In this document: piece after piece, positions 4,704 to 63,985 of the stretch
Layout: each line of letters begins with the position of its first letter
Position numbering within the stretch: the stretch's first letter is position 1
From: Candidatus Dojkabacteria bacterium
GTDB lineage: Bacteria; Patescibacteriota; Dojkabacteria; SC72; JAFGCJ01
DNA: 64,000 nucleotides
Direction: 5' to 3'
Assembly (NCBI GenBank): GCA_016929645.1
Contig: JAFGIK010000028.1
Coordinates: 11,402-75,401, forward strand
Translations under genes and position numbers: made by a program
The notes under the pieces: model-generated
Seen by the model: only the letters and a program-made list of their open reading frames with translations
The model's database searches: none
What the model was told of the DNA's origin: nothing

Positions 4704-7700
4704 TTATTCGGCAATTTCTTCCAACTCAGAAAAATCGGTAATTCTTGCAGATTCGCCTACAGGAATTGGTCGTCCGATAATAACATTTTCTTTGAGACCA
4801 CGCAAATAATCGGTCTTACCAATTATAGCAGCTTCAGTCAAAACTCTCACCTGTTCTTGGAATGACATTGCAGACAGGAAACTCTCGGTCTTTAATGATG
4901 CTGCTGTTATTCCAAGCAAATTATCAATGACAAAAGCAGGTTTCTTACCCATAGATTCTAATTGGATGTTCTTCATCTGAGCAATGAATTTATTAACAAA
5001 AGAACCAATCAAATACGATGAATCTCCAGAATCAATTACTTTAGCCATCTTGCCCATCTGCCTAACAATACATTCAACATGCTTGTCATTCATAGAAATA
5101 CCCTGCTCTGTATAAACACTCTGAACTCCATCAATTACGTATTCCAAAACATTCAGCAAATTAACAGCTTCAAGATATGTTCTTGGATCAATACTTCCAT
5201 CTGTCAACACCTTACCAGCTTTTAATTCATCGCCACTGTTTACAAGGATTTTGTAAGTTGGCATTATAGTGAATTCTTCAAAGGCAGGAACCCGACCACT
5301 AATTTCAAGAACATTTCCAAATATCTTTACTGTACCTGCATAAGGAGCCTGTTGCTCTTTCTTTTCCTTATTTGCAAACAGTACTTCTCCCTCTTTAACC
5401 TTATCCCCAGACTTTACCATTAAATCTTCCACATTATTCAAATAATATCTTCTTGTAACGTCTTTTTCTCCATTTGCTTCAAGTGAGAAACTGCCATCTT
5501 CCTGTTCAATTATCTTTATCTTGCCATCAAATGGCATGACAAATGCAGCTTTCTTTGGATGTCGTGCTTCAAATAACTCAGTAAGTCTCGGAAGACCTCT
5601 CGTAATATCTGTCTGTAAAGCACCTCCTGCATGGAAAGTTCGTAGAACCATCTGAGTAGCAGGTTCACCCATAGCCTGAGCAGCAATGACACCAACAGCT
5701 TTACCTACCCCAATAAGCTTATTATCCCCCATATCATATCCATAACACTTAGCACAAAGACCAAGTGGTGATTGACATGTTAAAGGTGACCTAACTTCAA
5801 CAGACTGAACTCCAGCATCTGCAATTTCTCTTGCAAGATTGAAAGTAATTTCTTCGTTTTCACCAACAATAGGCTTCTTTGTCTTCGGGTCAAGAACTTC
5901 TTTGCTTGTCCATCTCCCTGCAATAAGATCAATAAATGGGACTCTTCTATTTAACATATCGTCATCCCGAACAATAGTATGACCTGTCCCTTTAAACCCA
6001 CAATCATCAGTTCTAACAATTAAATCCTGAGCAACATCAACCAATTTCCTTGTCAAATATCCACTGCTTGCAGTTCTAAGTGCCGTATCAGCTAAACCTT
6101 TTCTCGCTCCACGGCTAGCAGTAAAGAACTCAAATGCAGAAAGGCCTTTTGTATGATTACCTTTGATAGGAAGCTCGACCCAGTTACCTTCTGGATCTCT
6201 CATCATACCTTTCATTGCTACAACAGCGGCAGTCTGGGTTGGATATTTACCAGCTCCAGATTTGACCTGTTGATAAACAGGATTTGTTGTATCAATTTTC
6301 TCCCAGATAGCGTCTGATAATTTGTTAAAGATTTCGTTCCACATATCGATACTAAGTTGCTTCTTTTCATCATAGGTCAAAAGACCCATCATGTAATCTT
6401 CTTGAAGCTTTAGCTCTTTTTGATCACCTTCTGCAAGTACTTCTTCACGGTTAATATCAATCATAAAATCTTCAACCGCTATATCATATCCCATTTCTGT
6501 AGCATACTTGAAACCAAGCTCTTTTAATTTATCGAGAACTTCTATAGCATCTTTTAGTGGATATCTTCTCACAATATCTCGGATCAAATCAGAAAGAGAA
6601 CTTTTGTCGATAACTTTGTTTACAAATGGATAACTTTCAGGCATAGATTCATTGAAAATTATTCTACCTATAGAAGTCTCCTCAATTTTACCCTTAACTG
6701 ACACTCTGATCTTAGTATCAAGTGCTAACTGACCAACATCATAAGCAGCAACAGCTTTATTTTGATTAGAAAATGTCCTTGTTACTTCGGATTTTTCATC
6801 CATTTGAGTTAACAGATAATGACCAATATTCATATCCTTACTAGGAATAGCCCAGATACTACTATCAGCTAAAGCCACTATATTGTTTTGTGCTAACATT
6901 TTGTCTTCTACCTCGGCGACAGCATCTTTTGACAAAGGAATATAAACAGACATAGTATCCCCATCAAAATCAGCATTATAACTTGAACAAACAAGAGGAC
7001 AGATTCTAATGGCATCTCCCTCAACAAGTGTTGCAAAAAATGCCTGAATACCCTGTTTATGAAGAGTCGGAGCTCTATTTAACATAACAGGTCTATCCTT
7101 AATAAGCTCTGCTAGAATGTCCCATACAACTTCTTCTTCATCATCAATAATTTGCTTTGCAACTCTAATATTTGGAGCATACTCTAATTCCAAAAGCTTG
7201 TTTATTACAAAAGGTCTAAACATTTCCAAAACCATAGTTTTGGGAAGACCACATTGGTTAATTGTTAAATTGGTCGAACCAATAATTACCGAACGACCTG
7301 AATAATCGACACGTTTACCAAGAAGATTTCTTCGGAATCTACCTTTCTTACCACGAAGGTTATCTGTAAGTGCCTTGTACGGAAGCCTTCTCATGCTCAA
7401 GATTGGTCTGCTTGGTCTATGACTATTATCAATCAATGCATCGACAGATTCTTGTAACATTCGCTTTTCATTTCGTAGAATAACCTCAGGTGCTCCAATT
7501 TCAATTAATCTCTTAAGTCGATTGTTTCTGTTAATAACTCTTCTGTACAAATCATTAAGATCAGATGTCGCAAATTTACCACCAGGAAGTTGGATAATAG
7601 GTCTTAAATCTGGTGGAATAACAGGAACCACATCGAGAATCATCCATTCTGGCCGAAGATTATTCTTCAAGAAACCATCGACAAGTCGTATTCTACTTAC

Positions 7701-18592: not shown

Positions 18593-19397
18593 GAATAAGG
18601 ACCTAGGACAAAATTTTCTTGTTAATCGAGATATTATTTCAAGAATTGTCTCACAAATAAAACCTGAAGAAGACGAGACTTTTATCGAAATTGGACCAGG
18701 TCTTGGAGCAATAACAGTTCCACTGGCAAGTAAGGTTAAAAAGATAATTGCTGTCGAAATTGATTCAAGATTACATCTTTTGCTTAATAGTGATATTGAG
18801 AAGTTTAAAATCAAAAATATTAAATTAATTAATGAAGATATTTTAAAAGTTAATCTTGAAAAGATTCTTGAAAAAGAAAACATTCAAAAATATCGAGTTT
18901 ATGGTTCACTGCCATACAGTATTTCAAAACAGATAATTAAGCAATTTCTAACGTATGACAAAAAAAAACCAAAGGATCTTACATTTATAATTCAAAAAGA
19001 AGTTGCAATGAATTATATTCAAGCTCCTCCGAAAGCTACTTTCCTGTATCACATGAGCGAAATATACTCCCATAAACAAATTTTAATGAATATTGCACCC
19101 AAAAACTTTAGACCTATTCCAAAAGTTGAGAGCTCATTAATTAAATTTGAATTGAAAACTAAGACAGATATTGATAATCCAGAGCAGTATATTAAATTCG
19201 TAAAAATTCTTTTTACTCATCCGAGAAAAACAATTCTAAATAATTTACGAACGTTAAATAAAAATTTGCTAAATAAATCGAAATTCGAACATGACAATGA
19301 AATTACAATGATCTTGAGCAAACGAGCAGCAGAGTGTAGTAAAGAAGAACTTTTTCAGCTTTTCCCTATTTTCCTGCAATTAACAGACAGGGCTTAA
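18582..19397 (+). CDS. rsmA: 16S rRNA (adenine1518/1519-N6)-dimethyltransferase RsmA/KsgA
   Basis: GQNFLVN ... IEIGPGLGAITVPL motifs. Confidence 0.85.
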   Translation: MNLKNKDLGQNFLVNRDIISRIVSQIKPEEDETFIEIGPGLGAITVPLASKVKKIIAVEIDSRLHLLLNSDIEKFKIKNIKLINEDILKVNLEKILEKENIQKYRVYGSLPYSISKQIIKQFLTYDKKKPKDLTFIIQKEVAMNYIQAPPKATFLYHMSEIYSHKQILMNIAPKNFRPIPKVESSLIKFELKTKTDIDNPEQYIKFVKILFTHPRKTILNNLRTLNKNLLNKSKFEHDNEITMILSKRAAECSKEELFQLFPIFLQLTDRA

Positions 19398-29936: not shown

Positions 29937-31370
29937 TTATTGATCAGATGGCATACTATCAACCTTAATTTCATCAATATCTCCTGGCCGCAAATTGTAT
30001 ACAGAAGATCCAATATTTACAACATACCTACCATACTCAAAAGTAATGCTCACAGCAGCTGTCTTTGAGGATTGCTTTGTTATACCAGCTCTACCAGTAG
30101 AAAAAGTAGTTTCTTGTGCAATCTCTTGTTCAAATGTAGAGGAGTAGGTCTCCATATCCAAATTACCCTCAGCAGTAAAGTTTTCGACATTAATAAAGTT
30201 ATACTCAAGCGATTCGACATTTGAATAATAAGAAACTGAATATTTGCCATCCTCCTTAATATCAAGAACAATATTAATATTTTCGATTTGAGTTGAACTC
30301 TCTGAATCACGACTAAAAACGAATGAACCAATATATCCTGGTTCGAATGTTCTTTTATCAACATTTTCGCTTAGTTTTGATAATTTCTCATTTAATTCAA
30401 CAGTACTTTGCATCAAGACAACATTGAAATCATAAACAACTTGCGAATGTGTATTTTCATAGTCATTAATTACCAGCTTTGCATCAGAATATGTAGATTT
30501 CAAGGCATTAAGATCAGCTGCACTGGCAGTATCATATGCGCTGAAATAGCGTGGGTCAGGAACTCCGTTAACACTAGGATACATTGCTAAATATTGATTC
30601 TGAATAGAAATTAAAGTCTGAATATAATTCTCAATGCTTTGAGTCTTTTCAATAAGCTTGTCTATCGACTCAATCATTGATTTTTTAATTTTTTGGCTAA
30701 ATTCATACTTTGGATCAAGAGCATCTACTCTCGCTTTAAGATCTTCATACTTTGTTCGCTGCTCAGTAAATTTTGCAAGCCTATCTTCGAAATCTTCTGT
30801 GTTTTTAGGATAAGTTGAATTTAATCTCACAAATTCAACTTCAAGACTTAAAACATCATCAAAATATTCCTGATATTCTTCGTATGAACTATCAGAAATA
30901 TCATTACATAATCCCACCGCCTCCTTGACTGATTCACGATTCTCAACGAAGGACTTAAAGATATACCACGGATTTGAATCAAGTTTATTTATTAAATCGA
31001 TAGTAAACATCATGTCATGAATATCTTTTTCCATGTCACTATAGGAATTCTCATCTGTAGTTAAGACTAAAAGATTCTTGCTACTTTCATCGTAAATAGA
31101 AGAAGAGAGTTCATCAATCTTTTCGATGTATTTTGTGGAAAGCGACTCATATTCTTTGTTTTTATTAAATCCATAAATAAGAACAGTTGCAATTAATCCT
31201 AATATCACAGTGACAATTCCTACAATCAGCCAACGTTTGCTTCTATTCGAACGAAATTTAGCATCTTTTTTCTCTGATTTTTCTGAATCTTTCTGCAATT
31301 TGGAATATTGGTTATTAGCGACAGAGGATCCCAGTGCTTTTGACTTTTGTAATAATGTTTTTTTTGACAT
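29937..31370 (-). CDS. Membrane-anchored protein of the pilus cluster (K-rich cytoplasmic N-terminus, TM, ~400-aa extracytoplasmic coiled-coil/beta domain). The MSKKT start is likely; the track's start at 31448 falls inside a palindromic repeat.
   Basis: ORF track entry with a TM at WLIVGIVTVILGLIATVLIYGF. It has no actin-like PilM fold. Confidence 0.4.
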   Translation of the reverse strand: MSKKTLLQKSKALGSSVANNQYSKLQKDSEKSEKKDAKFRSNRSKRWLIVGIVTVILGLIATVLIYGFNKNKEYESLSTKYIEKIDELSSSIYDESSKNLLVLTTDENSYSDMEKDIHDMMFTIDLINKLDSNPWYIFKSFVENRESVKEAVGLCNDISDSSYEEYQEYFDDVLSLEVEFVRLNSTYPKNTEDFEDRLAKFTEQRTKYEDLKARVDALDPKYEFSQKIKKSMIESIDKLIEKTQSIENYIQTLISIQNQYLAMYPSVNGVPDPRYFSAYDTASAADLNALKSTYSDAKLVINDYENTHSQVVYDFNVVLMQSTVELNEKLSKLSENVDKRTFEPGYIGSFVFSRDSESSTQIENINIVLDIKEDGKYSVSYYSNVESLEYNFINVENFTAEGNLDMETYSSTFEQEIAQETTFSTGRAGITKQSSKTAAVSITFEYGRYVVNIGSSVYNLRPGDIDEIKVDSMPSDQ

Positions 31371-31401
31371 GAATCTGTGCTCATAATTTAATTGACAAAG
31401 G

Positions 31402-31448
31402 ATTTTACATGAAATTTTAATGAAGTCCAGACCGAGACTCAGCTTCAT
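31402..31448. repeat. Palindromic repeat element, copy A (AAATTTTAATGAAG-TCCAGACCGAGACTCAGC-CTTCATTAAATTTTA)
   Basis: 14-bp AT-rich inverted arms around a GC-rich core. Closely related to the copy at 63550-63612 and to partial copies in metG. Confidence 0.7.
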
Positions 31449-31545
31449 TAAATTTTAACCAAAACAAAATTTTAATTCGTGTTATAATAGTAATTTATGC
31501 CGATATTGCACCGGAATTATATAAACTTGATCATAAAAAATTTAT

Positions 31546-32421
31546 ATGTTCCCTTTTAGCCGCGGAAGAAGACTATTATTACAAGCAGCAGCTATTGGTA
31601 CAGCAGCATATCTTCTCTCATCTTGCGACACGGCAAAACAAGATCAAAAGCGAATCTTGGAATATGCCACAACCTTGCCCAAAAGTTCTGGAGATGTACA
31701 ATGGACAGGAAATGTCACTTTTGTTGAAAACCAGAAGCGGGCGATAACAGGAATTCATGTCGATATAGAACCATCAGGCAGACCAAAGTTTGAAATGAGA
31801 GATATTCAAATGATGACACTCGACGCCTCCGGTAATCCAGCCACTTACGAATTGCTACAAATAGGTCTTAAAAAAGAGCATAACCATCTATTTGTTCTTG
31901 ATTGGGTACGAAACACGCTTTTTGACCAACATCCAGAAATGTTCTATCAATGCGGAATAGAGGAAATACTAAGACTTGTTGATGGATTAGCCTTTTTGAT
32001 GCTATCTCCAGAAGAGCAGCAAATTATCGATAATGGAGGAACTCGCTACTACGGACAGAGAGAACACTTATATAAACCTGACGGACAACCGTACTTTAGA
32101 GACCCAACAAACAATTCAGTAAGTGTCATTGAAGCTGGCGAAAGATATACCTGGAGTCCAGAGGACGGACTTACGGCTAAAGCACTTATTGCGACACACA
32201 TCCTTTCCGCTAAAGCACAACAAATTAATGAAGGCGGAATACAATGCATTGCTCAGATATGGCTAAATAAACAGATGAGTACTGGATATTCCACATGGGA
32301 CGTTGCTGCAAATTTTCCAGAAATCGGAGCTATCCAACAAATATGTGATAGCCAGACAGGAATTCAAACACAAATTGGAGGAATATCTGGTGAGCCAGCT
32401 AGCTATCCATTTAGCTGGTAA
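31546..32421 (+). CDS. Putative lipoprotein with a twin-arginine-like signal (SRGRRLLLQAAAIG...LLSSC)
   Basis: RR motif, hydrophobic region and LSSC lipobox. The gene looks GC-richer than its neighbours. Confidence 0.45.
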   Translation: MFPFSRGRRLLLQAAAIGTAAYLLSSCDTAKQDQKRILEYATTLPKSSGDVQWTGNVTFVENQKRAITGIHVDIEPSGRPKFEMRDIQMMTLDASGNPATYELLQIGLKKEHNHLFVLDWVRNTLFDQHPEMFYQCGIEEILRLVDGLAFLMLSPEEQQIIDNGGTRYYGQREHLYKPDGQPYFRDPTNNSVSVIEAGERYTWSPEDGLTAKALIATHILSAKAQQINEGGIQCIAQIWLNKQMSTGYSTWDVAANFPEIGAIQQICDSQTGIQTQIGGISGEPASYPFSW

Positions 32422-32525: not shown

Positions 32526-32947
32526 GGGGACGCATTTGGTTTCGACAGTTGTTCGCGTTCTAACGCTCAAGTCAGAGTAAAGCTCTGTAAAAACTTACAA
32601 ATAGACAGCAATAGTCTAGTACAACGTGTTCAGAAAGCTGCAAGTAACATTGTAGCTGGTTTTAATGCAGCATTAGCTGGATTAAATACTATGAATGCGG
32701 TAGTTGCATAACTAGCGACTACAGACCTGGATGGCTTTTTCTTGATAGAGCCTCCAACGTCTTTCACCTATCAAGATATATAGGAAAGGTAAACGTGATA
32801 AGCCTGACCTTCGAACTCTAAAATTATCACTACTGCATTTTGTTTTGTCAGCTTTATAAAATGCAGGAAATACTAAACTGACAAAACTTGTTTAAGGCGT
32901 TATTACAAAGCAATTGGACGTGGGTTCGACTCCCGCCGTCTCCACCA
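32526..32947 (+). ncRNA. ssrA: tmRNA (SsrA)
   Basis: 5' GGGGACGCATTTGGTTTCGAC ... 3' GGACGTGGGTTCGACTCCCGCCGTCTCCACCA. Acceptor stem with a G3:U70 wobble, T-arm GGTTCGACTCC and a terminal CCA. The internal tag-like frame ...AALAGLNTMNAVVA ends at TAA; the resume codon is uncertain. Confidence 0.9.
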
Positions 32948-33093: not shown

Positions 33094-33348
33094 ATGTACT
33101 ACGTTTACATACTTCAAAGTATCAATTTTCCTCAAAAAACATACGTTGGTTATTCACAAAATATAAAGCAGAGACTATCGAGACATAATACAGGTAATGT
33201 TAAATCAACGTATAAATACCGTCCTTGGAGAGTCAAGTTTTACTGTGCATTTGAAGAAAGATTAACAGCCATGAGGTTTGAAAGATATTTAAAAACTGCA
33301 TCGGGAATAGCTTTCAGGAGAAAGAGATTAGTCAAATACGATTCATGA
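33094..33348 (+). CDS. GIY-YIG nuclease-family small protein
   Basis: YYVYIL...YVGYS..R..H..G GIY-YIG motif; 84 aa; immediately downstream of ssrA. Confidence 0.7.
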   Translation: MYYVYILQSINFPQKTYVGYSQNIKQRLSRHNTGNVKSTYKYRPWRVKFYCAFEERLTAMRFERYLKTASGIAFRRKRLVKYDS

Positions 33349-47627: not shown

Positions 47628-48116
47628 TTAATTCTTTTTTAAATAAATCACACCGGAAATATGTTTTGATTTATGTTCTTTTTCGGTATTTGCATCTAGT
47701 GCATCCGTTAATATTGAGGTTTCAAAATCTTCATGATTAATTATTTTTTCATTAACAATAGCGACATCATGTTTTATTGAATTTGCATTACGATTCTCTT
47801 CCATATGAACAATAGGAATATTTTTGGATTTCTGCTTAATTCTGACATTACTATCACTACCATCAGAGTAAATTGATTGTCGCTTTGAGGTGGAAACCTC
47901 TATCCTTAAAGAACGGCCTTCAAAGGCTTTCCCATCCAAAGATTTGATCACATCTTCCACGTTCACTTCATCCTCCATAGTGACAAAGGCGAAACCTTTA
48001 AATCTACCGTTTTTAAACTTAGCAATTGAGACTTCTTTCACTTTACCTGCTTTTTCAAACCAATCTTTAAGAGATTCTTCTGTGCTTGACCAAGGAATAT
48101 TACCCACAAACAGCAT
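47628..48116 (-). CDS. RRM-type RNA-binding protein. Start at MLFVGNIPW, about 22 codons inside the track ORF.
   Basis: RNP2 LFVGNI and RNP1 KGFAFVTM motifs. Confidence 0.6.
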   Translation of the reverse strand: MLFVGNIPWSSTEESLKDWFEKAGKVKEVSIAKFKNGRFKGFAFVTMEDEVNVEDVIKSLDGKAFEGRSLRIEVSTSKRQSIYSDGSDSNVRIKQKSKNIPIVHMEENRNANSIKHDVAIVNEKIINHEDFETSILTDALDANTEKEHKSKHISGVIYLKKN

Positions 48117-48156
48117 ATTTGACATAAATATCATCTTAGAAAAATAAATATTAAGG

Positions 48157-49887
48157 CTATAAGCGCCAATCCACAGGCTCATCTAGTTCTCGGATGAGCA
48201 CGAAATATGAAGATTTTGAATCCAGAGCAAAATCGTTACCATAATAAGTTTGATTATCATATATCAATCCTTTGTATCGACCATCCACATAAGCCATAAC
48301 AGACTTTGCTCCAATTGAATTATTATTTAGTTCATCAAGTAATTCTTTTGCCATAATACCATCATTAAAAACAGAATGGTCCCAACTCGTTGAATCACTA
48401 CCTCCGAGAGAAATCAGATTCCAGCCGACATTTAAATGTATAGCATCACTTTGTTCCAACTCATTTACAGACATAGAGATATCCGCCCCAGTAGAATTAA
48501 CAATATATCCTGTATTTGATTCCAAATCAAAATTATTTCCATAAAACTCTCCATTTGACTTCTTTTCATAGCTGATCCAACGTCCATTGTCATATGTGGC
48601 AATAGACCTGAAGTTTCCGTTTGATGAAGTAATATATTCTGCAATACTTTCAGCTTTTCGACCATCAAGATCATATGGAAAAGAAACAAAAGTTGATCCT
48701 GGATCTAGTTCGTAACTAACATCTATCTTCGTTTCTTCATTGTCATCATCAGACAATGGATATTTGTAATCTTCAAAATTTCCTTGTACCTCAAAAATTT
48801 TCTGCTGGTTTTCTACAAAATTATTATCAGCATCAATTAATGTTCTTTTGAATTCGATGTTATCATTAGATACGGTCGCTATAATAACCTCATCATAAAG
48901 ACCCGGAGCACCAACATTTTCTGTAGATACACCATACATTGACCATAATTGAACACCATTATAAACCTCATCTCCACCTTTATGACCATGTCCCATAAAT
49001 ACGGCTTTCAGATTACTATCACAGCCTAGTTCATCAATAATATACTTTGGGAAAAGAGTTCCATCAGAGGAAGAAGTTTCACGGTGATGAATAAACATGA
49101 TTGATGCTGAAGCTTTGTTTGAATCACACACCTCGCTTCTTATCCAATTCATATCTTCTGTATTTCCTGGAAAATTTTGAAAAAAATTATAACCAAGTAT
49201 GATGAAATTTATATTTCCCCTAACAAAGGAATATGTGTGATCAGTACTATCTGCTGTACAAAATCCATTGGTAGCAATTTCAGGATTAAATGGTGCAGGA
49301 AAATCTGTTTTAGTCTGAAGCTCTACAGTTTCAAAATTAGCAGAATAATGATCTCGAGGGCTTTCTGCTTCAGAGCCCCAATAGTTAAAAGTGCCATTAC
49401 AAATGCCATTCTCATAGCTATCCAGCATTACGTATTTTTTGTTGGGATATTCAGTTCCTTCAACTCGCTCTACGTCATGATTGCCGAGAGCCACATGAAT
49501 TTCCATAAGCTCATCTTTATCAGTTTGTGTAATATATTCCTTTGATTGCAAGGCAAGTAATCCTTTTGTAGGCTGATATCTGTAATCTCCAACATGAACA
49601 TCGCCCATCTTGTGGGCCCAGGTAATATCACCAACATGAATTAGCATTTTAGAATCGTTTTCAGCGACTTGTTGAAACAGAGTGTCATATGACTGAGTCT
49701 CAGTATTATGGGTATCTGTTATTATCGAAAACGACCAAGGTGTAAACTGCTCTGTTGTAGCACTACTTCTGGGATCCATTGTCGTTGACTGTTGTGTCAA
49801 AGCTACGACTATAAAAAATAGCGTTAAACTAACACTAAAGATCCCAATTATAAAAAAATTATTGCTGTTGTTTTTGCGAACGGGCAT
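48157..49887 (-). CDS. Secreted calcineurin-like metallophosphoesterase
   Basis: Signal/TM N-terminus and GDITWAH...GNHD...GHGH phosphoesterase motifs. Confidence 0.6.
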   Translation of the reverse strand: MPVRKNNSNNFFIIGIFSVSLTLFFIVVALTQQSTTMDPRSSATTEQFTPWSFSIITDTHNTETQSYDTLFQQVAENDSKMLIHVGDITWAHKMGDVHVGDYRYQPTKGLLALQSKEYITQTDKDELMEIHVALGNHDVERVEGTEYPNKKYVMLDSYENGICNGTFNYWGSEAESPRDHYSANFETVELQTKTDFPAPFNPEIATNGFCTADSTDHTYSFVRGNINFIILGYNFFQNFPGNTEDMNWIRSEVCDSNKASASIMFIHHRETSSSDGTLFPKYIIDELGCDSNLKAVFMGHGHKGGDEVYNGVQLWSMYGVSTENVGAPGLYDEVIIATVSNDNIEFKRTLIDADNNFVENQQKIFEVQGNFEDYKYPLSDDDNEETKIDVSYELDPGSTFVSFPYDLDGRKAESIAEYITSSNGNFRSIATYDNGRWISYEKKSNGEFYGNNFDLESNTGYIVNSTGADISMSVNELEQSDAIHLNVGWNLISLGGSDSTSWDHSVFNDGIMAKELLDELNNNSIGAKSVMAYVDGRYKGLIYDNQTYYGNDFALDSKSSYFVLIRELDEPVDWRL

Positions 49888-50309: not shown

Positions 50310-53129
50310 ATGAAAACACAAATTTTCGAAAAATTAAAATCGCAGCACAAAAAGATTTTTATTGGAGTCTCATGGCCATACGCAAATGGCGATATACACC
50401 TTGGACACCTTGCTGGTCAAAATGTCGTGTGCGATGTTTTTGCCCGTTATCACAGGCTTATTGGAAACGAAGTCCTAATGGTTTCAGGAAGCGATTGTCA
50501 CGGTGCACCTGTTGTTTTTGCCGCAGAAGAAAAAGGCATTAAACCAGAGGAATTTGCAGAAAAATCTCATGAAAATATTTTAAAAACATTTAAGAGACTT
50601 GGATTTTTATATGAAAATTACACTTCAACAACAACAGAAAACCATAAAAAAGTTGCACAAAATGTTTTTTTAGTATTAAAAGAGAAAGGTTATCTTGTTG
50701 AAAAAGAATCTCAACAATACTTCGATCCCAAGGTCAATAGGTTTTTGCCAGACAGATATGTCAGAGGAACTTGCCCAAACTGCAAAGCAGACAATGCCCG
50801 CGGTGATGAATGTCCTGAGTGTGGAGCCTATCTTGATCCAGAGGAGCTAATCAACCCTCGTAGCACATTATCTGATGCCACCCCAATAATCAAACAGACG
50901 AATCATTTTTATCTGGACTTGCGAAAAGCAGCACCAAAACTCAACGAATGGTTGAAAGATAAGAATTACTGGCGAAAATGGGTACTGGAAGTTTCTCGAG
51001 GATGGATTAAAAATGGATTAAAACCTCGGGCTATCACCCGTGACATGGACTACGGAATCAAAGTTCCAGTTGACGGATGGGAAGGAAAAGTCATATACGT
51101 ATGGTTTGAGGCAGTTATCGGATATTTATCTGCAGCAATTGAATGGGCCGCCAAGCAAGGAAACCCCGGCAAATGGGAAGAATTCTGGAAGAATTCAGAA
51201 TGTAAGCATTATTACTTTATTGCAGGCGGAAATGTACCGTTTCACACAATAATATGGCCTGCCGAAATTTTCGCTTACAACGAAAAGTACGAAGATAAGG
51301 CGATATTCGAGAAATATAAACTTCCGGGGGAAACAACACAGGAAAATCTTCAACTTCCTTATGACGTACCTGCAAATAATATGCTGACATTCCGTGGCAA
51401 AAAGATGTCAAAAGGTGACAAAACAGGAATAACCTTACAGAAATTACTTGATGAATACAAATTTAACCCTGATACATTAAGGTATTTTTTTGTAAAAAAT
51501 GCGCCGGAAGATACAAACCGAGACTATATATCAAAAGATCTTGTCGACTCAAATAACAACGAATTGGTGGCAAATATCGGCAATTTTATTAATCGAGTTG
51601 TTTCTTTTACGAATTCGAAGTTTGAAGGAATCGTGCCGGAAGGGCATGTTAATAACGAGACCGAGACTCAGCTTAATGAAACTTTCATTAAAACTGGAAA
51701 ATATATCGAAGAATGCGAATTTGTTAAAGCAATTGAACAAATTCTGGCACTTGGACACTACGCTAATAAGTATTTTAACGATCAAAAACCTTGGGAAAAA
51801 ATAAAAACCGAGCAAGAAAATGCAAGTAACACCATTTACAACTCTATCCAGATTGTGTCTGCATTTGGAACCCTGCTGAAGCCTTTTTTACCGTTCACAG
51901 CAGAAAAAATTCAAAAAATGTTAAATTTTAATGAATTGTATGATCCTAACAAAGAACTTGAATCTAATGGCAAAATATCAAAGTTTGTAAACGTATGGAA
52001 ATTTAATGAAATCCCAGTGGGTCAAAAAATTAACAAACCTGAGATTTTATTTGAAAAGCTCGATTACAGAGAGGAATTCCAAAAGACTGACAACCCTGAA
52101 CCAGAAATCATCATAAGCACTGAAACATCGGGCTTAGATTTCTCAAAGATTGATCCAAACGTTGTTATCGCAAAAATTAAAAGCTCACAGCCACATCCGA
52201 AAGACGCTAAATTAAAAATTCATGAAGTTGAGTCTCGGTCTCCAAGCAGAGTCGTCTGTGCCGCCCAAAACGTAAACCCAGGCGATATCGTCCCGCTCGC
52301 CCTTCCAGGAAGCAAAGTACTTTCGCTTTCAGGGAAAGGCAAACATAAGATCGAAAGTGCCACCATAAAAGGTGAAAAATCAGAGGGAATGCTTTGCGCC
52401 CAAGTAGAACTTGGCATAGGTCAAGACACCAAAAACATATATATCCTTCCAAAATCATTCGAAAAACATATTGGAAAACCGTTATCATCAATCCGTTCAA
52501 TTGGTCTCAACATAGATGAAACCCTAAAAGATGAACCTGTCCTTTGGACTGTCGTTAGGGACATTAACATCAAGAGGAATCGATCGAATAAGTTGAACAA
52601 ATGGATCCATGATCGTGAGCTGGAGGTTGAACAGATAACCAAAAATAAGAAATGGAAAGAAAATGAAATTTATTCTCATTTTCGAGAATTACACAGCAAA
52701 TATGGAGCAGGGGATACTCCAGGAGCAGCAGAGGAGTTGATATCTTTCGTTAATAAAAACCATGCATTGCCAAACATTAACAACTTCGTCGATTTATACA
52801 ACACTTTTTCGGCAACAACAGGAATATCAATAGGAGCTCATGACATAGAAAGGATTGATGGTACGCCACAGCTAAAAATCCTTGAAAAAGATCAAGAATT
52901 CAATCATGTGACAACAAATACAAAAGATGTTGCCAAAAAAGGCGAATACGCATTTACTGATGATAAAGGAGTGATGTGCAGACTGGACATAAAACAGTCG
53001 AACCATACAAATGTCACACAGAAAACTAAAAAAATCCTTATTATTTTCCAAGGAACTAAGACTCTGACAATCAAAGTATTGAAAGAAAAATTAAAGGAAT
53101 TCGAAAAACTAGTTAAAGAACTTCTTTAG
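50310..53129 (+). CDS. metG: Methionyl-tRNA synthetase fused to a C-terminal tRNA_bind OB-fold and a PheT-like B3/4 domain (939 aa)
   Basis: HLGH and KMSKG class I motifs, Zn knuckle CPNCK...CPECG, tRNA_bind (PGDIVPLALPGSKV...SEGMLCAQVELGI), then VDLYNTFSATTGISIGAHDIERIDG...AFTDDKGVMCRLDI resembling the PheT B3/4 block [25 protein letters not shown]...IADHNKALAMGGI. Confidence 0.9.
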   Translation: MKTQIFEKLKSQHKKIFIGVSWPYANGDIHLGHLAGQNVVCDVFARYHRLIGNEVLMVSGSDCHGAPVVFAAEEKGIKPEEFAEKSHENILKTFKRLGFLYENYTSTTTENHKKVAQNVFLVLKEKGYLVEKESQQYFDPKVNRFLPDRYVRGTCPNCKADNARGDECPECGAYLDPEELINPRSTLSDATPIIKQTNHFYLDLRKAAPKLNEWLKDKNYWRKWVLEVSRGWIKNGLKPRAITRDMDYGIKVPVDGWEGKVIYVWFEAVIGYLSAAIEWAAKQGNPGKWEEFWKNSECKHYYFIAGGNVPFHTIIWPAEIFAYNEKYEDKAIFEKYKLPGETTQENLQLPYDVPANNMLTFRGKKMSKGDKTGITLQKLLDEYKFNPDTLRYFFVKNAPEDTNRDYISKDLVDSNNNELVANIGNFINRVVSFTNSKFEGIVPEGHVNNETETQLNETFIKTGKYIEECEFVKAIEQILALGHYANKYFNDQKPWEKIKTEQENASNTIYNSIQIVSAFGTLLKPFLPFTAEKIQKMLNFNELYDPNKELESNGKISKFVNVWKFNEIPVGQKINKPEILFEKLDYREEFQKTDNPEPEIIISTETSGLDFSKIDPNVVIAKIKSSQPHPKDAKLKIHEVESRSPSRVVCAAQNVNPGDIVPLALPGSKVLSLSGKGKHKIESATIKGEKSEGMLCAQVELGIGQDTKNIYILPKSFEKHIGKPLSSIRSIGLNIDETLKDEPVLWTVVRDINIKRNRSNKLNKWIHDRELEVEQITKNKKWKENEIYSHFRELHSKYGAGDTPGAAEELISFVNKNHALPNINNFVDLYNTFSATTGISIGAHDIERIDGTPQLKILEKDQEFNHVTTNTKDVAKKGEYAFTDDKGVMCRLDIKQSNHTNVTQKTKKILIIFQGTKTLTIKVLKEKLKEFEKLVKELL
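51655..51700. repeat. Possible degenerate partial copy inside metG (GACCGAGACTCAGCTT + AATGAAACTTTCATTAAAA)
   Basis: A 16-nt exact match to the copy A core plus an arm-like palindrome. Encodes NETETQLNETFIK in frame. Confidence 0.3.
52209..52239. repeat. Partial copy of the palindromic element inside metG (AAAAATTCATGAAGTTGAGTCTCGGTCT)
   Basis: Matches the reverse complement of copy A (AAAATTTAATGAAGCTGAGTCTCGGTCT) at about 27 of 30 positions. Encodes HEVESRS in frame. Confidence 0.45.
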
Positions 53130-55342: not shown

Positions 55343-57757
55343 CTATTCAACCTCAACTGGCCATTTTTCCATCATCAAGAGTCCTGATTTATGACCATCT
55401 TCTAACAACCCCATACCCTTGAGATTCTGCCAAATATATTCTGTTACAAACGGTGCAAAAGGATGAATCAATTTTAATGAAGTAATAATAATCGTCAACA
55501 AACGGGACATAAATTTCGCCTTATTTTCAGGATCTTCATCAATAAGCTTTTTCGTTTCTTCGATCCATTGGTCACAAACGGTGTGCCAGAAGAATTCCCT
55601 TAATTCTTCAACAGCAAGATTAAATCTATATTTATTGATGTAATCTGTAATCCTTGTTGCCGTAGCATAAGTTTGCTTGAGCCACTCGTCATCAGCATTC
55701 TTTAGATTCATTAAATTTTCATTAATTTCACCATCAAGTTGTTTAATTTCATTTTCATTAAACAAATCCTCCAACTTCATCATGACAAAGCGACTGGCAT
55801 TCCATATCTTATTTACAAAATTTCGATTACCCATCAACTTATCATCCATGATTGGAGTACTTTGACCAGGAAGTGTTGCAGTGTAGTACCACAGACGGAG
55901 TGCATCAGCACCATATTTCTTTAACACATCAGCAGGCTCAACTCCATTTCCTTTGGATTTAGACATTTTCTGACCATCTGCCGCCAAAATCATGCCATGC
56001 AAGTAAACTGTATGAAAAGGAGTTTTCCCAGTACGATACATAGACATCATCATCATTCTGGCAACCCAGAAAAACAAAATGTCACGAGCAGTTTCCATTA
56101 CATCTGTTGGGAAAAATTTCTTAAAATCTTCTCCTTCAGGTCCACCCATAGTTGAGAAAGTCCACTGACCTGATGAATACCACGTGTCAAAAACATCTTC
56201 TTCTTGAACAATATCAACATCAGCTGCAGATTTTCCACATTTTTCGCACTTTTCAGGCTTATCTATAGCAGCCATGGCATTACCGCAACCGTTTACTTTT
56301 TCCCCAGTTTCCTTTTCGAAATCCTCGATAGACTTGTCAGGATTGCTTAACTTCCAGTCAAAGAACTTCTTAGAACCACAGTACCAAACTGGAATTTGAT
56401 GTCCCCACCAAAGTTGACGAGAAATACACCATGGCTCGAGTTTTTCAAACCACTGGCGCAGCACCCGATGCTGATTTTCAGGTAGCACTACAGTTTCCCT
56501 TTTATCCAAGGCTTCAATGCATTTTTCTGCCAAGGATTTTATGTTTACAAACCATTGTTTTGACATAATTTGTTCAATGTCATTCTTGCAACGCTCACAA
56601 ACAATAACCTCGTGCGGAAAATCCTCAACTTTAACCAACAATCCCTCATTTTTAAGATCTTCAATAACCGCATCACGACACTCTTTTACCGTCATACCCT
56701 GGTATTTCTCAGGTGCATTGTCATTCATTTTTCCTTCTTCATTGATCACATTTATGACTTCAAGATTGTGCTCTTTGCCAATGCCAAAGTCGATAGATGA
56801 ATGAGCAGGTGTTACTTTCAAAGCGCCTGTACCAAAATCCTTATCAACTTCTCTTGCAGCAATAACTGGAATCTCCCTGTCTGTTAATGGCAATTTAACT
56901 TTTTTACCAACAAGATCTTTGTATCGATCATCATCAGTAGAAACTGCTACTGCAGTGTCTCCAAGCATAGTTTCAGGTCGAGTTGTTGCTACAGTGACAA
57001 ACTTAGTCGGGTCATCAGCATACGGATATTTGATATATGCAAAGATGCCTTTTTTCTCAATATGATCTGTATCAATATTGGCAAGTGCTGTCTTACAGTG
57101 GGTACACTGGTTAATGATGTACTCGTCTCGATAAACCATACCTTCATTAAACATTTTAATGAAAGTTTCAAAAATAACTTTATTTAGGCCTTCGTCAAGA
57201 GTAAATTTTTCACGTGACCAATCGGAAGATAGACCAATTCTTTTTTCCTGCTGCCTTGCATGATCAGCATTTTTTGTACAAAATTCATAGGCTTTATGAT
57301 AAAACTTTTCTCTACCGATTTCCCATTTATCAAGGCCTCTTTCTGCCAACACTTTTGTAAAAACGGCTTCCGTTTGTATCCCTGCATGATCTTTACCAGG
57401 TAAAAGTAGGGTAGGCCGACCATTCATTCGATTGTAACGACCCATACAATCCTGAAAAGAATAACCACACATATGGCCAATATGAAGCTCTCCGTTTGCA
57501 TTTGGAGGTGGCTGTGTTATGACAAAAGGCTTTTTCGATTTTACTTCTTTCTTTGTCGAACTTTCTGTCTTTGATGACTCTTCATGAAGATCAGAAATCA
57601 TTTTGTCTGGATTAAAATAACCCGAATCTTCCCATAATTTATACATCTGCATTTCATCATCAGGCGTATATTTTTTGGGAATTTGAAACGAATCACTGGT
57701 AGAAGATTTCTCTCCAGCATTATTTTCTTTCTCAGCTTTTATTTCTTTGCCAGCCAT
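55343..57757 (-). CDS. valS: Valyl-tRNA synthetase
   Basis: PPNANGELHIGH, GKDHAGIQTE, WCISRQLWWGHQIP and KMSKSKGN. 804 aa, lacking the usual C-terminal coiled coil. Confidence 0.75.
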   Translation of the reverse strand: MAGKEIKAEKENNAGEKSSTSDSFQIPKKYTPDDEMQMYKLWEDSGYFNPDKMISDLHEESSKTESSTKKEVKSKKPFVITQPPPNANGELHIGHMCGYSFQDCMGRYNRMNGRPTLLLPGKDHAGIQTEAVFTKVLAERGLDKWEIGREKFYHKAYEFCTKNADHARQQEKRIGLSSDWSREKFTLDEGLNKVIFETFIKMFNEGMVYRDEYIINQCTHCKTALANIDTDHIEKKGIFAYIKYPYADDPTKFVTVATTRPETMLGDTAVAVSTDDDRYKDLVGKKVKLPLTDREIPVIAAREVDKDFGTGALKVTPAHSSIDFGIGKEHNLEVINVINEEGKMNDNAPEKYQGMTVKECRDAVIEDLKNEGLLVKVEDFPHEVIVCERCKNDIEQIMSKQWFVNIKSLAEKCIEALDKRETVVLPENQHRVLRQWFEKLEPWCISRQLWWGHQIPVWYCGSKKFFDWKLSNPDKSIEDFEKETGEKVNGCGNAMAAIDKPEKCEKCGKSAADVDIVQEEDVFDTWYSSGQWTFSTMGGPEGEDFKKFFPTDVMETARDILFFWVARMMMMSMYRTGKTPFHTVYLHGMILAADGQKMSKSKGNGVEPADVLKKYGADALRLWYYTATLPGQSTPIMDDKLMGNRNFVNKIWNASRFVMMKLEDLFNENEIKQLDGEINENLMNLKNADDEWLKQTYATATRITDYINKYRFNLAVEELREFFWHTVCDQWIEETKKLIDEDPENKAKFMSRLLTIIITSLKLIHPFAPFVTEYIWQNLKGMGLLEDGHKSGLLMMEKWPVEVE

Positions 57758-62581: not shown

Positions 62582-63985
62582 TTAATCTTCATACAATAGC
62601 ATTACATCGTTATTTTTTAATGAAACAATAAAAGGAATGACAATCAACATCATGACTAAACCCTGAGGAAGAGTCCAAAAATAATGATCAAGAAAGAAAA
62701 TACATAAAACATAAGCAGATACAATTAATAGGTTAATAAAACTAATCTTTTGTGCTTTAAATCGCTCAATAGCAATTAATACTAATATGATAGATAAAAT
62801 GGCACTACCAATTATCCCATTTTCTACAAAAATCATCATAAAAACATTGTGTACCGGTTGAATAATCCTTACACCTTGAGCATTATAAACAGGAATATTA
62901 GATAGATATTTAACAAAGTTGCCCATACCAACTCCTGTAACAGAATTAGAACTTGCAATCTCAACGCTTTTCTCCATAAGCATTCGACGCTCAGTGACAC
63001 TTATATCCGTTTCAGATGATTGCTCAACCAGCCTATTCTTCAAAGCCCGAGCTAGATAATTATCGCTTTTCATAACCCACAAACCCAAACAAGCAATTGT
63101 AGTTAATGAAAAAATAATAAATCCTACAAAAATCTTTTTACTAAAATTTTTATAAAGAAAAATTATCATTCTTATGAAAATAACAGCAAATAATGCAAGC
63201 CAAGCAGTTCGAGACCAGGTCACAACAATACAGGTAATACAGAGCAGAAGCGAAATTGATAAAAATACTTTCAATAAATACTTTTTCTTTAATGTTTTCT
63301 CTTGGATAAGAGTCAATAGCCAATTAATAAGGATGAAACATATCAAAACAAGAAAACCACCTAAAATATTTGGATGTGGAAAAGTACCATACGATCTCAT
63401 CCGATAACCATCAGGAAGGTAAACAGCACTAGCATTAAATCCACCAACATGAACTCGAGATTCACCAAGAAAGAATAGACCTAACGGAGAATTTCGATAA
63501 AATTGTAGTAATCCGATAACCGCTTGTACAAGTCCAGAAAGGATTAATGAAATTTTCATGAAGCTCAGACCGAGTCTCGAGATAGACCGAGTCTCGACTT
63601 CATTAAATTTTAATAAATCAATCCACCAAATAATTCCAAGACCACAAACCAAGTACAACACAAATCTTGACGAAAAATAAAACACGATCCAATCTCTGAA
63701 AATCAAATTATGGATAATAAACCAGAATGAAATAGCTATTAATATAATTTTCTTTAATTTTTCATTAAAAACACCACAAAAAAAGAAAATTGAAATTAAT
63801 ACCAGACATAAAAAATCTACAATATTCACATAAAAATCAAGATAGTTAATGAAAAAACCATGCTGCAAAGTAAACCCAGAATAAAAATGGAAAACCCTAT
63901 TAAAAGGAAATAAAAACAAAAGACTGCAAATCAACAACAATGTAAGTTTTTCTCTAATGAAATTCTTATTTTTCAGAAGTGGCAA
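62582..63985 (-). CDS. O-antigen ligase (Wzy_C)-like polytopic membrane protein; contains an in-frame palindromic repeat
   Basis: About 10 to 12 TM helices, a periplasmic loop with RMRSYGTFPHPNILGG and SRTAWLALF typical of the Wzy_C family. Confidence 0.5.
   Translation of the reverse strand: MPLLKNKNFIREKLTLLLICSLLFLFPFNRVFHFYSGFTLQHGFFINYLDFYVNIVDFLCLVLISIFFFCGVFNEKLKKIILIAISFWFIIHNLIFRDWIVFYFSSRFVLYLVCGLGIIWWIDLLKFNEVETRSISRLGLSFMKISLILSGLVQAVIGLLQFYRNSPLGLFFLGESRVHVGGFNASAVYLPDGYRMRSYGTFPHPNILGGFLVLICFILINWLLTLIQEKTLKKKYLLKVFLSISLLLCITCIVVTWSRTAWLALFAVIFIRMIIFLYKNFSKKIFVGFIIFSLTTIACLGLWVMKSDNYLARALKNRLVEQSSETDISVTERRMLMEKSVEIASSNSVTGVGMGNFVKYLSNIPVYNAQGVRIIQPVHNVFMMIFVENGIIGSAILSIILVLIAIERFKAQKISFINLLIVSAYVLCIFFLDHYFWTLPQGLVMMLIVIPFIVSLKNNDVMLLYED
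63550..63612. repeat. Palindromic repeat element, copy B, with a tandemly duplicated core (GACCGAGTCTCGA x2)
   Basis: AAATTTTCATGAAG-CTCAGACCGAGTCTCGAGATAGACCGAGTCTCGA-CTTCATTAAATTTTA. It shares arms and core with copy A. Confidence 0.7.

Follow-up and report, generated by a model that had tools for sequence, protein, structure and literature searches.

A GC-cored hairpin repeat with in-frame, nearly length-neutral copies in genes of a Candidatus Dojkabacteria genome

Introduction

Rickettsia palindromic elements (RPEs) are repeats of about 100-150 bp which integrate additively, resulting in translational fusions, and which are present in dozens of copies (PMC10969869). Uptake sequences are numerous, with hundreds to thousands of copies at about one per kb. 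Known ones amount to 765-1,892 copies per genome, and the intragenic ones are placed without insertions or deletions at poorly conserved residues (PMC2817400). In CPR bacteria, com genes and type IV pili are present and Saccharibacteria are naturally competent, with no uptake sequence reported (PMC10633639). Small dispersed repeats have hardly been described in the genomes of CPR/Patescibacteria, and a literature search linking Patescibacteria to MITEs returned nothing relevant. To our knowledge, neither an uptake bias nor a receptor is known in CPR.

Here, we analyze a window of 64,000 nucleotides, the whole stretch of DNA under study, from a Candidatus Dojkabacteria bacterium. A GC-cored, RPE/MITE-like palindromic repeat with in-frame copies inside protein-coding genes had been predicted in this window from the sequence alone. 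The repeat resembles the RPEs in being palindromic and in lying in frame within intact, unrelated housekeeping genes of a small-genome bacterium. It differs from them in how it affects the length of its host proteins, and much of the following is concerned with this difference.

Results

Source genome and gene context

The window has a GC content of about 35 % and belongs to a MAG of an uncultured Candidatus Dojkabacteria (CPR/Patescibacteria), of which 74 kb could be reached (the window plus the sequence L001). Exact copies of window proteins were identified only as the NCBI Dojkabacteria protein P0001 (Wzy_C, 100 % identity) and in the Logan assembly of SRR13394437, and the exact RpsL sequence was confined to the SRR13394437 sample among the collections searched. 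No close relative of the source genome turned up in these collections: the best Wzy_C homologue shares 39 % identity, and the nearest MetRS among the GTDB species genomes, encoded by a Dojkabacteria MAG, shares 58 %. Within-genome paralogues as leads to other contigs of the source genome were not found.

The genes of the window are housekeeping genes (grpE, hrcA, rpsL, rpsG, ftsK, dnaG, rpoD, pilN, pilO and metG), accompanied by a tmRNA (32526-32947), a ValRS-like ORF, an ABC-F protein and Wzy_C, and jag, yidC, yidD, rnpA and dnaA follow just past the window end. No transposase or recombinase domain was detected among the genes examined in the 74 kb, a set that leaves aside the two largest ORFs (1306 and 1134 aa), and no Y1 transposase was found in the 74 kb.

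Several features of the region are worth recording in their own right. At a distance of about 1 kb downstream of copy A of the repeat, the tmRNA gene is located (+ strand, Rfam score 96.9 bits), which is followed after about 150 nt by the gene of a stand-alone GIY-YIG protein of 84 aa (33094-33348, + strand). A tmRNA- or tRNA-derived att site was rejected as an identity of the repeat, as no core is present in 32526-32947. Upstream of metG, a protein of 165 aa containing an RRM_1 RNA-recognition motif of the eukaryote type (47628-48125, - strand; L026 7319-7816) adjoins a 576-aa Metallophos protein. The Logan contigs of SRR13394437 break at about 30950 and at 56044-56074, where the NCBI contig is continuous, which suggests variation between strains or branching of the graph at these positions; no copy of the repeat is located at either break.

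A repeat family at four loci

The GC-cored repeat with AT-rich inverted arms is a genuine family. Its 12-nt core, AGACCGAG[A/T]CTC, is present in five copies, which are distributed over four loci of the 74 kb. Allowing up to one mismatch, GACCGAGWCTC was matched seven times against 0.36 expected, a number reached in none of 100 shuffles; five of these seven are exact cores (31430, 51659, 52230 on the - strand, 63568 and 63585). In a non-circular test, the 30-mer of copy A was compared with the other loci and agreed at 26, 27 and 27 of 30 positions; across 100 windows simulated with a Markov-1 model, no match exceeded 21 of 30. Furthermore, a repeat finder grouped 31429-31465, 51658-51694 and 63584-63620 into one direct family. 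All four loci named in the original prediction thus exist, with small corrections of their coordinates, and the core counts and the 30-mer test bear out its description of the repeat.

Both tests refute a chance similarity of ordinary coding and intergenic sequence, which we consider practically negligible as an explanation. What speaks for it is that arm-like words recur in the coding sequence of the window, such as AATTTTAATGAA with five occurrences against 0.14 expected under an order-3 model. Words of this kind (AAATTTTAATGAA and variants) were also noted in ordinary coding sequence at 19078, 36162, 51923, 55469 and 57142. The coding bias of an AT-rich genome, which favours Asn, Phe, Lys and Glu, is the probable cause of their recurrence.

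The conserved unit comprises about 30 nt at all four loci and consists of the core AGACCGAG[A/T]CTC, two variable bases and the AT-rich arm CTTCATTAAATTTTAA. Copies A and B, and only these, additionally carry the upstream sequence AAAGGATT and an inverted copy of the arm, resulting in a hairpin of 62-76 nt with the core in the loop; the two units in metG, m1 and m2, are bare units without the left arm. The 14-nt inverted arms predicted for the two full copies are present with one mismatch in A and two in B, which agrees with the terminal inverted repeats of a MITE. Both copies fold better than shuffled sequence, copy A with z = -2.8 as RNA and -2.6 as DNA, and copy B with -5.1 and -3.2, respectively. 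Similarity between A and B runs leftward to AAAGGATT, so that the full copies span 31397-31458 (62 nt) and 63538-63613 (76 nt), and their flanks are unrelated. Sharing of 62-76 nt including both arms and AAAGGATT between unrelated flanks fits the copying of a pre-formed element and not convergence.

An alignment with the flanks revealed no direct repeat at the borders of A and B that would represent a target-site duplication, which is weak evidence given two full copies. A search of the 74 kb with an nhmmer profile of the unit returned nothing beyond the four loci and no cloud of degenerate copies, and an excess of near-miss cores was likewise not found there. The copies are read in three different combinations of frame and orientation, and neither GTAG nor CTAC is present in the element sequence. 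A variable/template repeat pair of a DGR was considered and rejected, since the differences between the copies are not adenine-specific and a reverse transcriptase is missing.

Copy A probably lies in a spacer between divergent genes

Copy A (31397-31458, + strand) starts with AAAGGATT, followed by the left arm (31412-31425), the core CAGACCGAGACTCAG (31428-31442) and the right arm CTTCATTAAATTTTAA (31443-31458), as delimited by sequence and fold. The range given originally, 31402-31448, marks a real locus and ends at the ATG of a long ORF, by which the right arm was lost. This 503-aa ORF starts at 31448 and hence begins inside copy A. An independent Logan gene call places the start of the same gene at 31370 instead, which leaves copy A intergenic, in a 175-nt spacer between the divergent genes 29937-31370 (- strand) and 31546-32421 (+ strand). 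Copy A contains stops in all six reading frames. We conclude that copy A is probably intergenic and that the N-terminal extension of the pilus-cluster protein, which had been ascribed to it, is probably an artefact of ORF calling. The claim of in-frame copies inside genes accordingly holds for three of the four loci, all within intact genes, and probably not for copy A.

No terminator-like site was found around copy A, by which an intrinsic terminator was rejected, and the one promoter-like site that overlaps it is weak, with no more such sites than in shuffled sequence. An IS608 target was also dismissed, as TTAC is present at copy A only.

Copy B occupies a loop of the Wzy_C protein

Copy B (63538-63613, + strand; 76 nt) is a full hairpin in antisense orientation inside the Wzy_C gene (62582-63985, - strand). 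It consists of a left arm (63550-63563), two cores (63566-63580 and 63583-63597) and a right arm (63598-63613), the cores being a tandem duplication with a distance of 17 nt, as had been recognized before. TRF remained silent on this array because it is too short. The RNA fold of copy B reaches -21.4 kcal/mol. Two frames are open through the element, one of which is the Wzy_C frame, where it encodes about 26 residues, approximately L125-S150 (LKFNEVETRSISRLGLSFMKISLILS). The 467-aa Wzy_C ORF is uninterrupted, and its homology to family members extends over the whole length, to either side of the copy. The NCBI annotation of the protein (P0001) comprises 325 aa and starts at M143, inside copy B, which is probably a mis-annotation caused by the repeat.

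The distance between the anchors R107 and Q154 amounts to 47 residues, compared with 32-50 (median 38) in the 45 homologues keeping both anchors and 41-42 in the three closest ones (about 36 % identity). The loop is therefore only about 6-9 residues longer than in homologues, against 26 encoded by the element, and its length stays within the range of the family. Removal of copy B would leave 21-26 residues between the anchors, fewer than in any homologue, and the first half of TM helix 5 would be lost. A purely additive insert of 21-26 residues would thus require an ancestor shorter than any homologue seen. In an AlphaFold2 model of Wzy_C (pLDDT 90.8), residues 99-127 and 131-164 form helices joined by a turn at 128-130, and the copy B stretch has a pLDDT of 79 compared with 94-98 in the neighbouring stretches. 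In this model, the residues of copy B are predicted to end the first of these helices, to form the three-residue turn and to start the second, which places them at the TM4/TM5 tip, a site that tolerates extra length.

Two units in metG add no residues

The MetRS of the window (50310-53129, + strand; 939 aa) is composed of catalytic, anticodon-binding and tRNA_bind domains followed by a B3/4 domain (PF03483), which is normally found in the PheRS beta subunit. The orthologue in the Dojkabacteria contig L030 comprises 757 aa and has a tRNA_bind but no B3_4 match in the gene table.

The earlier fragments 52209-52239 and, listed as possible, 51655-51700 are both real units of core and arm, at 52209-52242 and 51657-51694. 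The unit m1 (51657-51694, + strand) lies in sense orientation in the anticodon-binding domain and is 84 % identical to copy A, and m2 (52209-52242, - strand) is inverted, lies in the tRNA_bind domain and is 90 % complementary to copy A over 30 nt. The peptide encoded by m1 is ETETQLNETFIKT, also given as ETETQLNETFIK, and m2 reads KLKIHEVESRS on the + strand. The in-frame placement in metG proved correct, as did the peptides MKLSLGLDFIKIS and LKFNEVETRSISRLGLSFMKISLI quoted originally for copies A and B. The m1 arm region forms a local 8-bp hairpin, and a TAA that would be in frame in this arm reads GAA, an exchange to be expected from the adaptation of repeat sequence to a reading frame.

Comparison with orthologues revealed no extra length at either unit. 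Between the anchors FEGIVPEG and EFVKA, which enclose m1, the spacing is identical (0 residues difference) in the Dojkabacteria orthologues L014 and L030; the stretch aligns without gaps to the E. coli MetRS, and in the Pyrococcus enzyme it contains 4 more residues. At m2, the MetRS of the window is 2 residues shorter than those of L014 and L030 and gapless against the Pyrococcus sequence. Both units fall where MetRS orthologues themselves vary. Judged by these alignments, the metG units are length-neutral patches and not insertions, and the encoded peptide is not additional relative to L014, L030 or the solved MetRS structures. The presence of the same peptide segments in orthologues had been named as a sign of ordinary conserved coding sequence; instead, the orthologous positions in relatives carry unrelated sequence.

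These data bear directly on transposition of the classical RPE/MITE-like kind, by which host proteins would gain an in-frame peptide. Such an event would account for the terminal inverted arms and the hairpin, for the in-frame placement in intact ORFs and for a Wzy_C loop that is 6-9 residues longer than in homologues and whose extra length would be tolerated at the tip of a helical hairpin. For metG it is contradicted by differences of 0 and -2 residues, and in Wzy_C a net excess of at most 9 residues stands against the 26 encoded. The lack of a visible target-site duplication and a size of 62-76 nt compared with about 150 bp in RPEs (PMC10969869) also speak against it. When the element peptides of all open frames were concatenated and searched against 5.8 billion protein clusters, nothing was found at E <= 10, in a search whose sensitivity was limited to identical runs of about 16 residues or longer. 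Overall, the original prediction of an RPE-like in-frame insertion is only partly supported, and we regard additive transposition of the classical kind as improbable.

Potential RNA structures

The two metG units form an inverted pair (51657-51689 and 52210-52242) of 33 nt with 85 % complementarity and 520 nt between the arms. In the metG mRNA from 51620 to 52280, the minimum-free-energy fold and the centroid fold both hold the m1:m2 helix (z = -3.0). A shufflon or invertase site in metG was rejected, as the opposite strand has no ORF.

It is conceivable that the repeat acts as RNA, by forming double-stranded structures that control mRNA stability or translation in a coordinated way, for example via RNase III. 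Local hairpins would then form in the mRNA of Wzy_C and, next to copy A, in the 5' region, a long-range helix would connect m1 and m2, and a transcript of copy A could base-pair in trans with m2 of metG and with the copy in Wzy_C, both of which are inverted. Besides the metG helix, the significant hairpin folds and the complementarity of copy A to m2 fit this idea, and selection for complementarity would explain the identical cores of m1 and m2. On the other hand, four copies are too few to reveal covariation, no Rfam family matched, and the surroundings of copy A have no terminator and a single weak promoter-like site at shuffle level. Moreover, a function as RNA leaves the origin of the sequences at these sites unexplained. 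We consider this explanation doubtful.

An invariant core beside drifting arms

Including one flanking base on each side, the cores of m1 and m2 are identical (14/14) and match copy A at 13 of 14 positions, whereas among the arms of m1, m2 and A the identity is only 14/20 in each comparison. The core is furthermore made of codons that are rare in this genome, as expressed by their fraction within the synonymous family: CGG 0.05, TCG 0.07, CTC 0.07, CTG 0.07, AGC 0.10 and ACC 0.11. This codon usage indicates that the repeat is not a product of ordinary coding evolution. An unchanged core next to drifting arms suggests a constraint on the core at the DNA or RNA level and not neutral decay. Together with the retained rare codons, the sequence comparison suggests that the core may be recognized by something. 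A 13-nt odd palindrome, ACTGAGTCTCAGT, was observed inside the Metallophos gene (49690-49706); it has CTGAGTCTC in common with the reverse-complemented core and represents a 2-mismatch core on both strands, a resemblance that may be due to chance.

The unit could accordingly be a recognized DNA motif, similar to an uptake sequence or to the site of a chromosome protein, that was gained by length-neutral substitution, with the GC core as the recognized part and the AT-rich flank as accessory. The invariant core, the drifting arms, the retention of rare codons and the huge enrichment of the exact 12-mer are in agreement with such a motif. A similar layout is known from the extended USS of Haemophilus, in which a GC core is followed by an AT-rich flank. 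The metG occurrences are length-neutral and located at poorly conserved positions, as described for uptake sequences (PMC2817400). CPR bacteria have com genes and type IV pili, competence is established in Saccharibacteria (PMC10633639), and PilN and PilO are encoded in the window. In addition, dnaA is encoded 2.7 kb beyond copy B, at about 4.1 kb after the end of the window, which makes a role close to the origin conceivable. However, five cores in 74 kb correspond to about one per 15 kb, compared with 765-1,892 uptake sequences per genome (PMC2817400), and an excess of near-miss cores is missing. A canonical parS site was not found either, which led us to reject parS as such. Conservation over 30 nt exceeds the need of a binding site, and point substitution cannot yield the 62-76 nt, including both arms, that A and B share.

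We therefore treat the recognized motif as a tentative alternative of low probability. Its more specific form, an uptake-type or chromosome-organizing signal of 12-nt core and flank that was written length-neutrally into genes including the essential metG, appears slightly less probable still. If true, this would be the first report of an uptake-type signal outside the Proteobacteria, and it would come from a lineage relying on type IV pili and com genes.

Distribution in relatives and sequence collections

A comparison with related genomes, proposed along with the original prediction, covered the syntenic dnaA-to-metG regions of three Dojkabacteria (L014, L028 and L030), where the unit profile detected no copy. 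As the orthologous positions in relatives are also unrelated in sequence, this points to a lineage-specific gain. The exact pattern AGACCGAGWCTCNNCTTCATNAA had 0 matches in 185,579 GTDB species genomes and 12 matches in JGI metagenomes. The latter fall into two groups of homologous contigs (41-46 % and 55-62 % GC) and were judged to be chance matches and not family members, since they are without arms and belong to no Rfam family; the two matches of a looser pattern in IMG/VR were judged likewise. Rfam identified the tmRNA only in the whole window, and permissive scans over A and B gave nothing credible.

The loci of the relatives contain no analogous dispersed repeat family. Other repeats were observed in them: the dnaA-rnpA spacer of L028, presumed to be the oriC region, carries two 46-nt direct repeats (7389-7434 and 7592-7637; 87 % identical), each composed of an AT-rich part and, after it, a GC-rich hairpin (AGGTCGG...CCGACCT), and L014, a Dojkabacteria STE_172 contig, contains a perfect 61-nt direct duplication (1977-2037 and 2072-2132) with a spacing of 95 nt.

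Discussion

Proposed origin of the gene-borne copies

Based on the shared anatomy of A and B, the foreign-looking codons, the lineage-specific occurrence and the lengths of the host proteins, we propose a lineage-restricted, non-autonomous hairpin repeat that survives within genes only as frame-preserving substitution patches, a reading in which we place middling confidence and which could well turn out either way. A selfish or neutral hairpin repeat would be copied into its sites at the DNA level, in a copy-and-paste manner. It could be mobilized by a transposase acting in trans from elsewhere in the genome, or by recombination or template switching during replication. Inside genes, only versions that keep the frame and have roughly native length would persist through trimming and selection. 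The repeat would thereby replace native codons in tolerant, poorly conserved segments, and no peptide module would be added.

The gene-borne copies are indeed located in poorly conserved protein segments. The tolerant sites would be, in MetRS, a variable helix within the anticodon-binding domain and a strand and loop within the tRNA_bind domain, and, in Wzy_C, the TM4/TM5 tip. The element-encoded residues are predicted to be integrated into the protein structure. Two routes could lead to this state. The repeat may have been inserted and then reduced by palindrome-stimulated deletions under selection for native length, or native sequence may have been replaced directly from a template via gene conversion or template switching. 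Length neutrality at all three coding sites is awkward for a simple insertion. A hairpin repeat that spreads by templated patch replacement would be a conceivable alternative.

If the patch behaviour extends genome-wide, this would mean either a repeat that overwrites coding sequence or a recognition motif that shapes proteins as the uptake sequences of Haemophilus and Neisseria do, and both would bear on the evolution of tiny, recombination-dependent genomes. A practical consequence is that the element misleads gene callers: the start of Wzy_C at NCBI lies inside copy B, and a naive ORF call extends the pilus-cluster gene into copy A.

Comparison with known repeat systems and uptake sequences

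With the RPEs, the repeat also shares that the encoded residues lie in tolerant surface or loop segments. It differs in its host, a CPR bacterium, in its size of 62-76 nt, or about 30 nt for the bare units, and in its number, with four loci in 74 kb compared with dozens of RPE copies per genome. Copies in metG add no residues and the one in Wzy_C adds at most about 9 of 26, and the family is read in three frame/orientation combinations and not in one frame with a conserved peptide.

In common with MITE, REP, Correia and ERIC sequences, the repeat is short and non-coding, has terminal inverted arms and lacks a transposase of its own. The hairpins are co-transcribed into mRNAs, and they may sit next to promoters. 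In contrast to these families, no target-site duplication was found and no parent IS or RAYT among the genes examined in the 74 kb, three of the four loci are intragenic, half units without one arm occur, and the conserved part is the central core and not the termini. REPs and REPINs differ in particular, since REPs are extragenic with GTAG and a RAYT, whereas the present repeat is mostly intragenic and has no GTAG.

Compared with the uptake sequences (USS/DUS), the density is roughly 10-fold lower, as estimated from a small sample of five cores in 74 kb, and the two full copies have far more sequence in common than would be needed for a motif. As in a USS, a short invariant core is combined with a looser flank. 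The resemblance extends to the metG copies, which are intragenic without insertions or deletions at poorly conserved residues and occur in both orientations as an inverted pair, as is the case for uptake sequences (PMC2817400).
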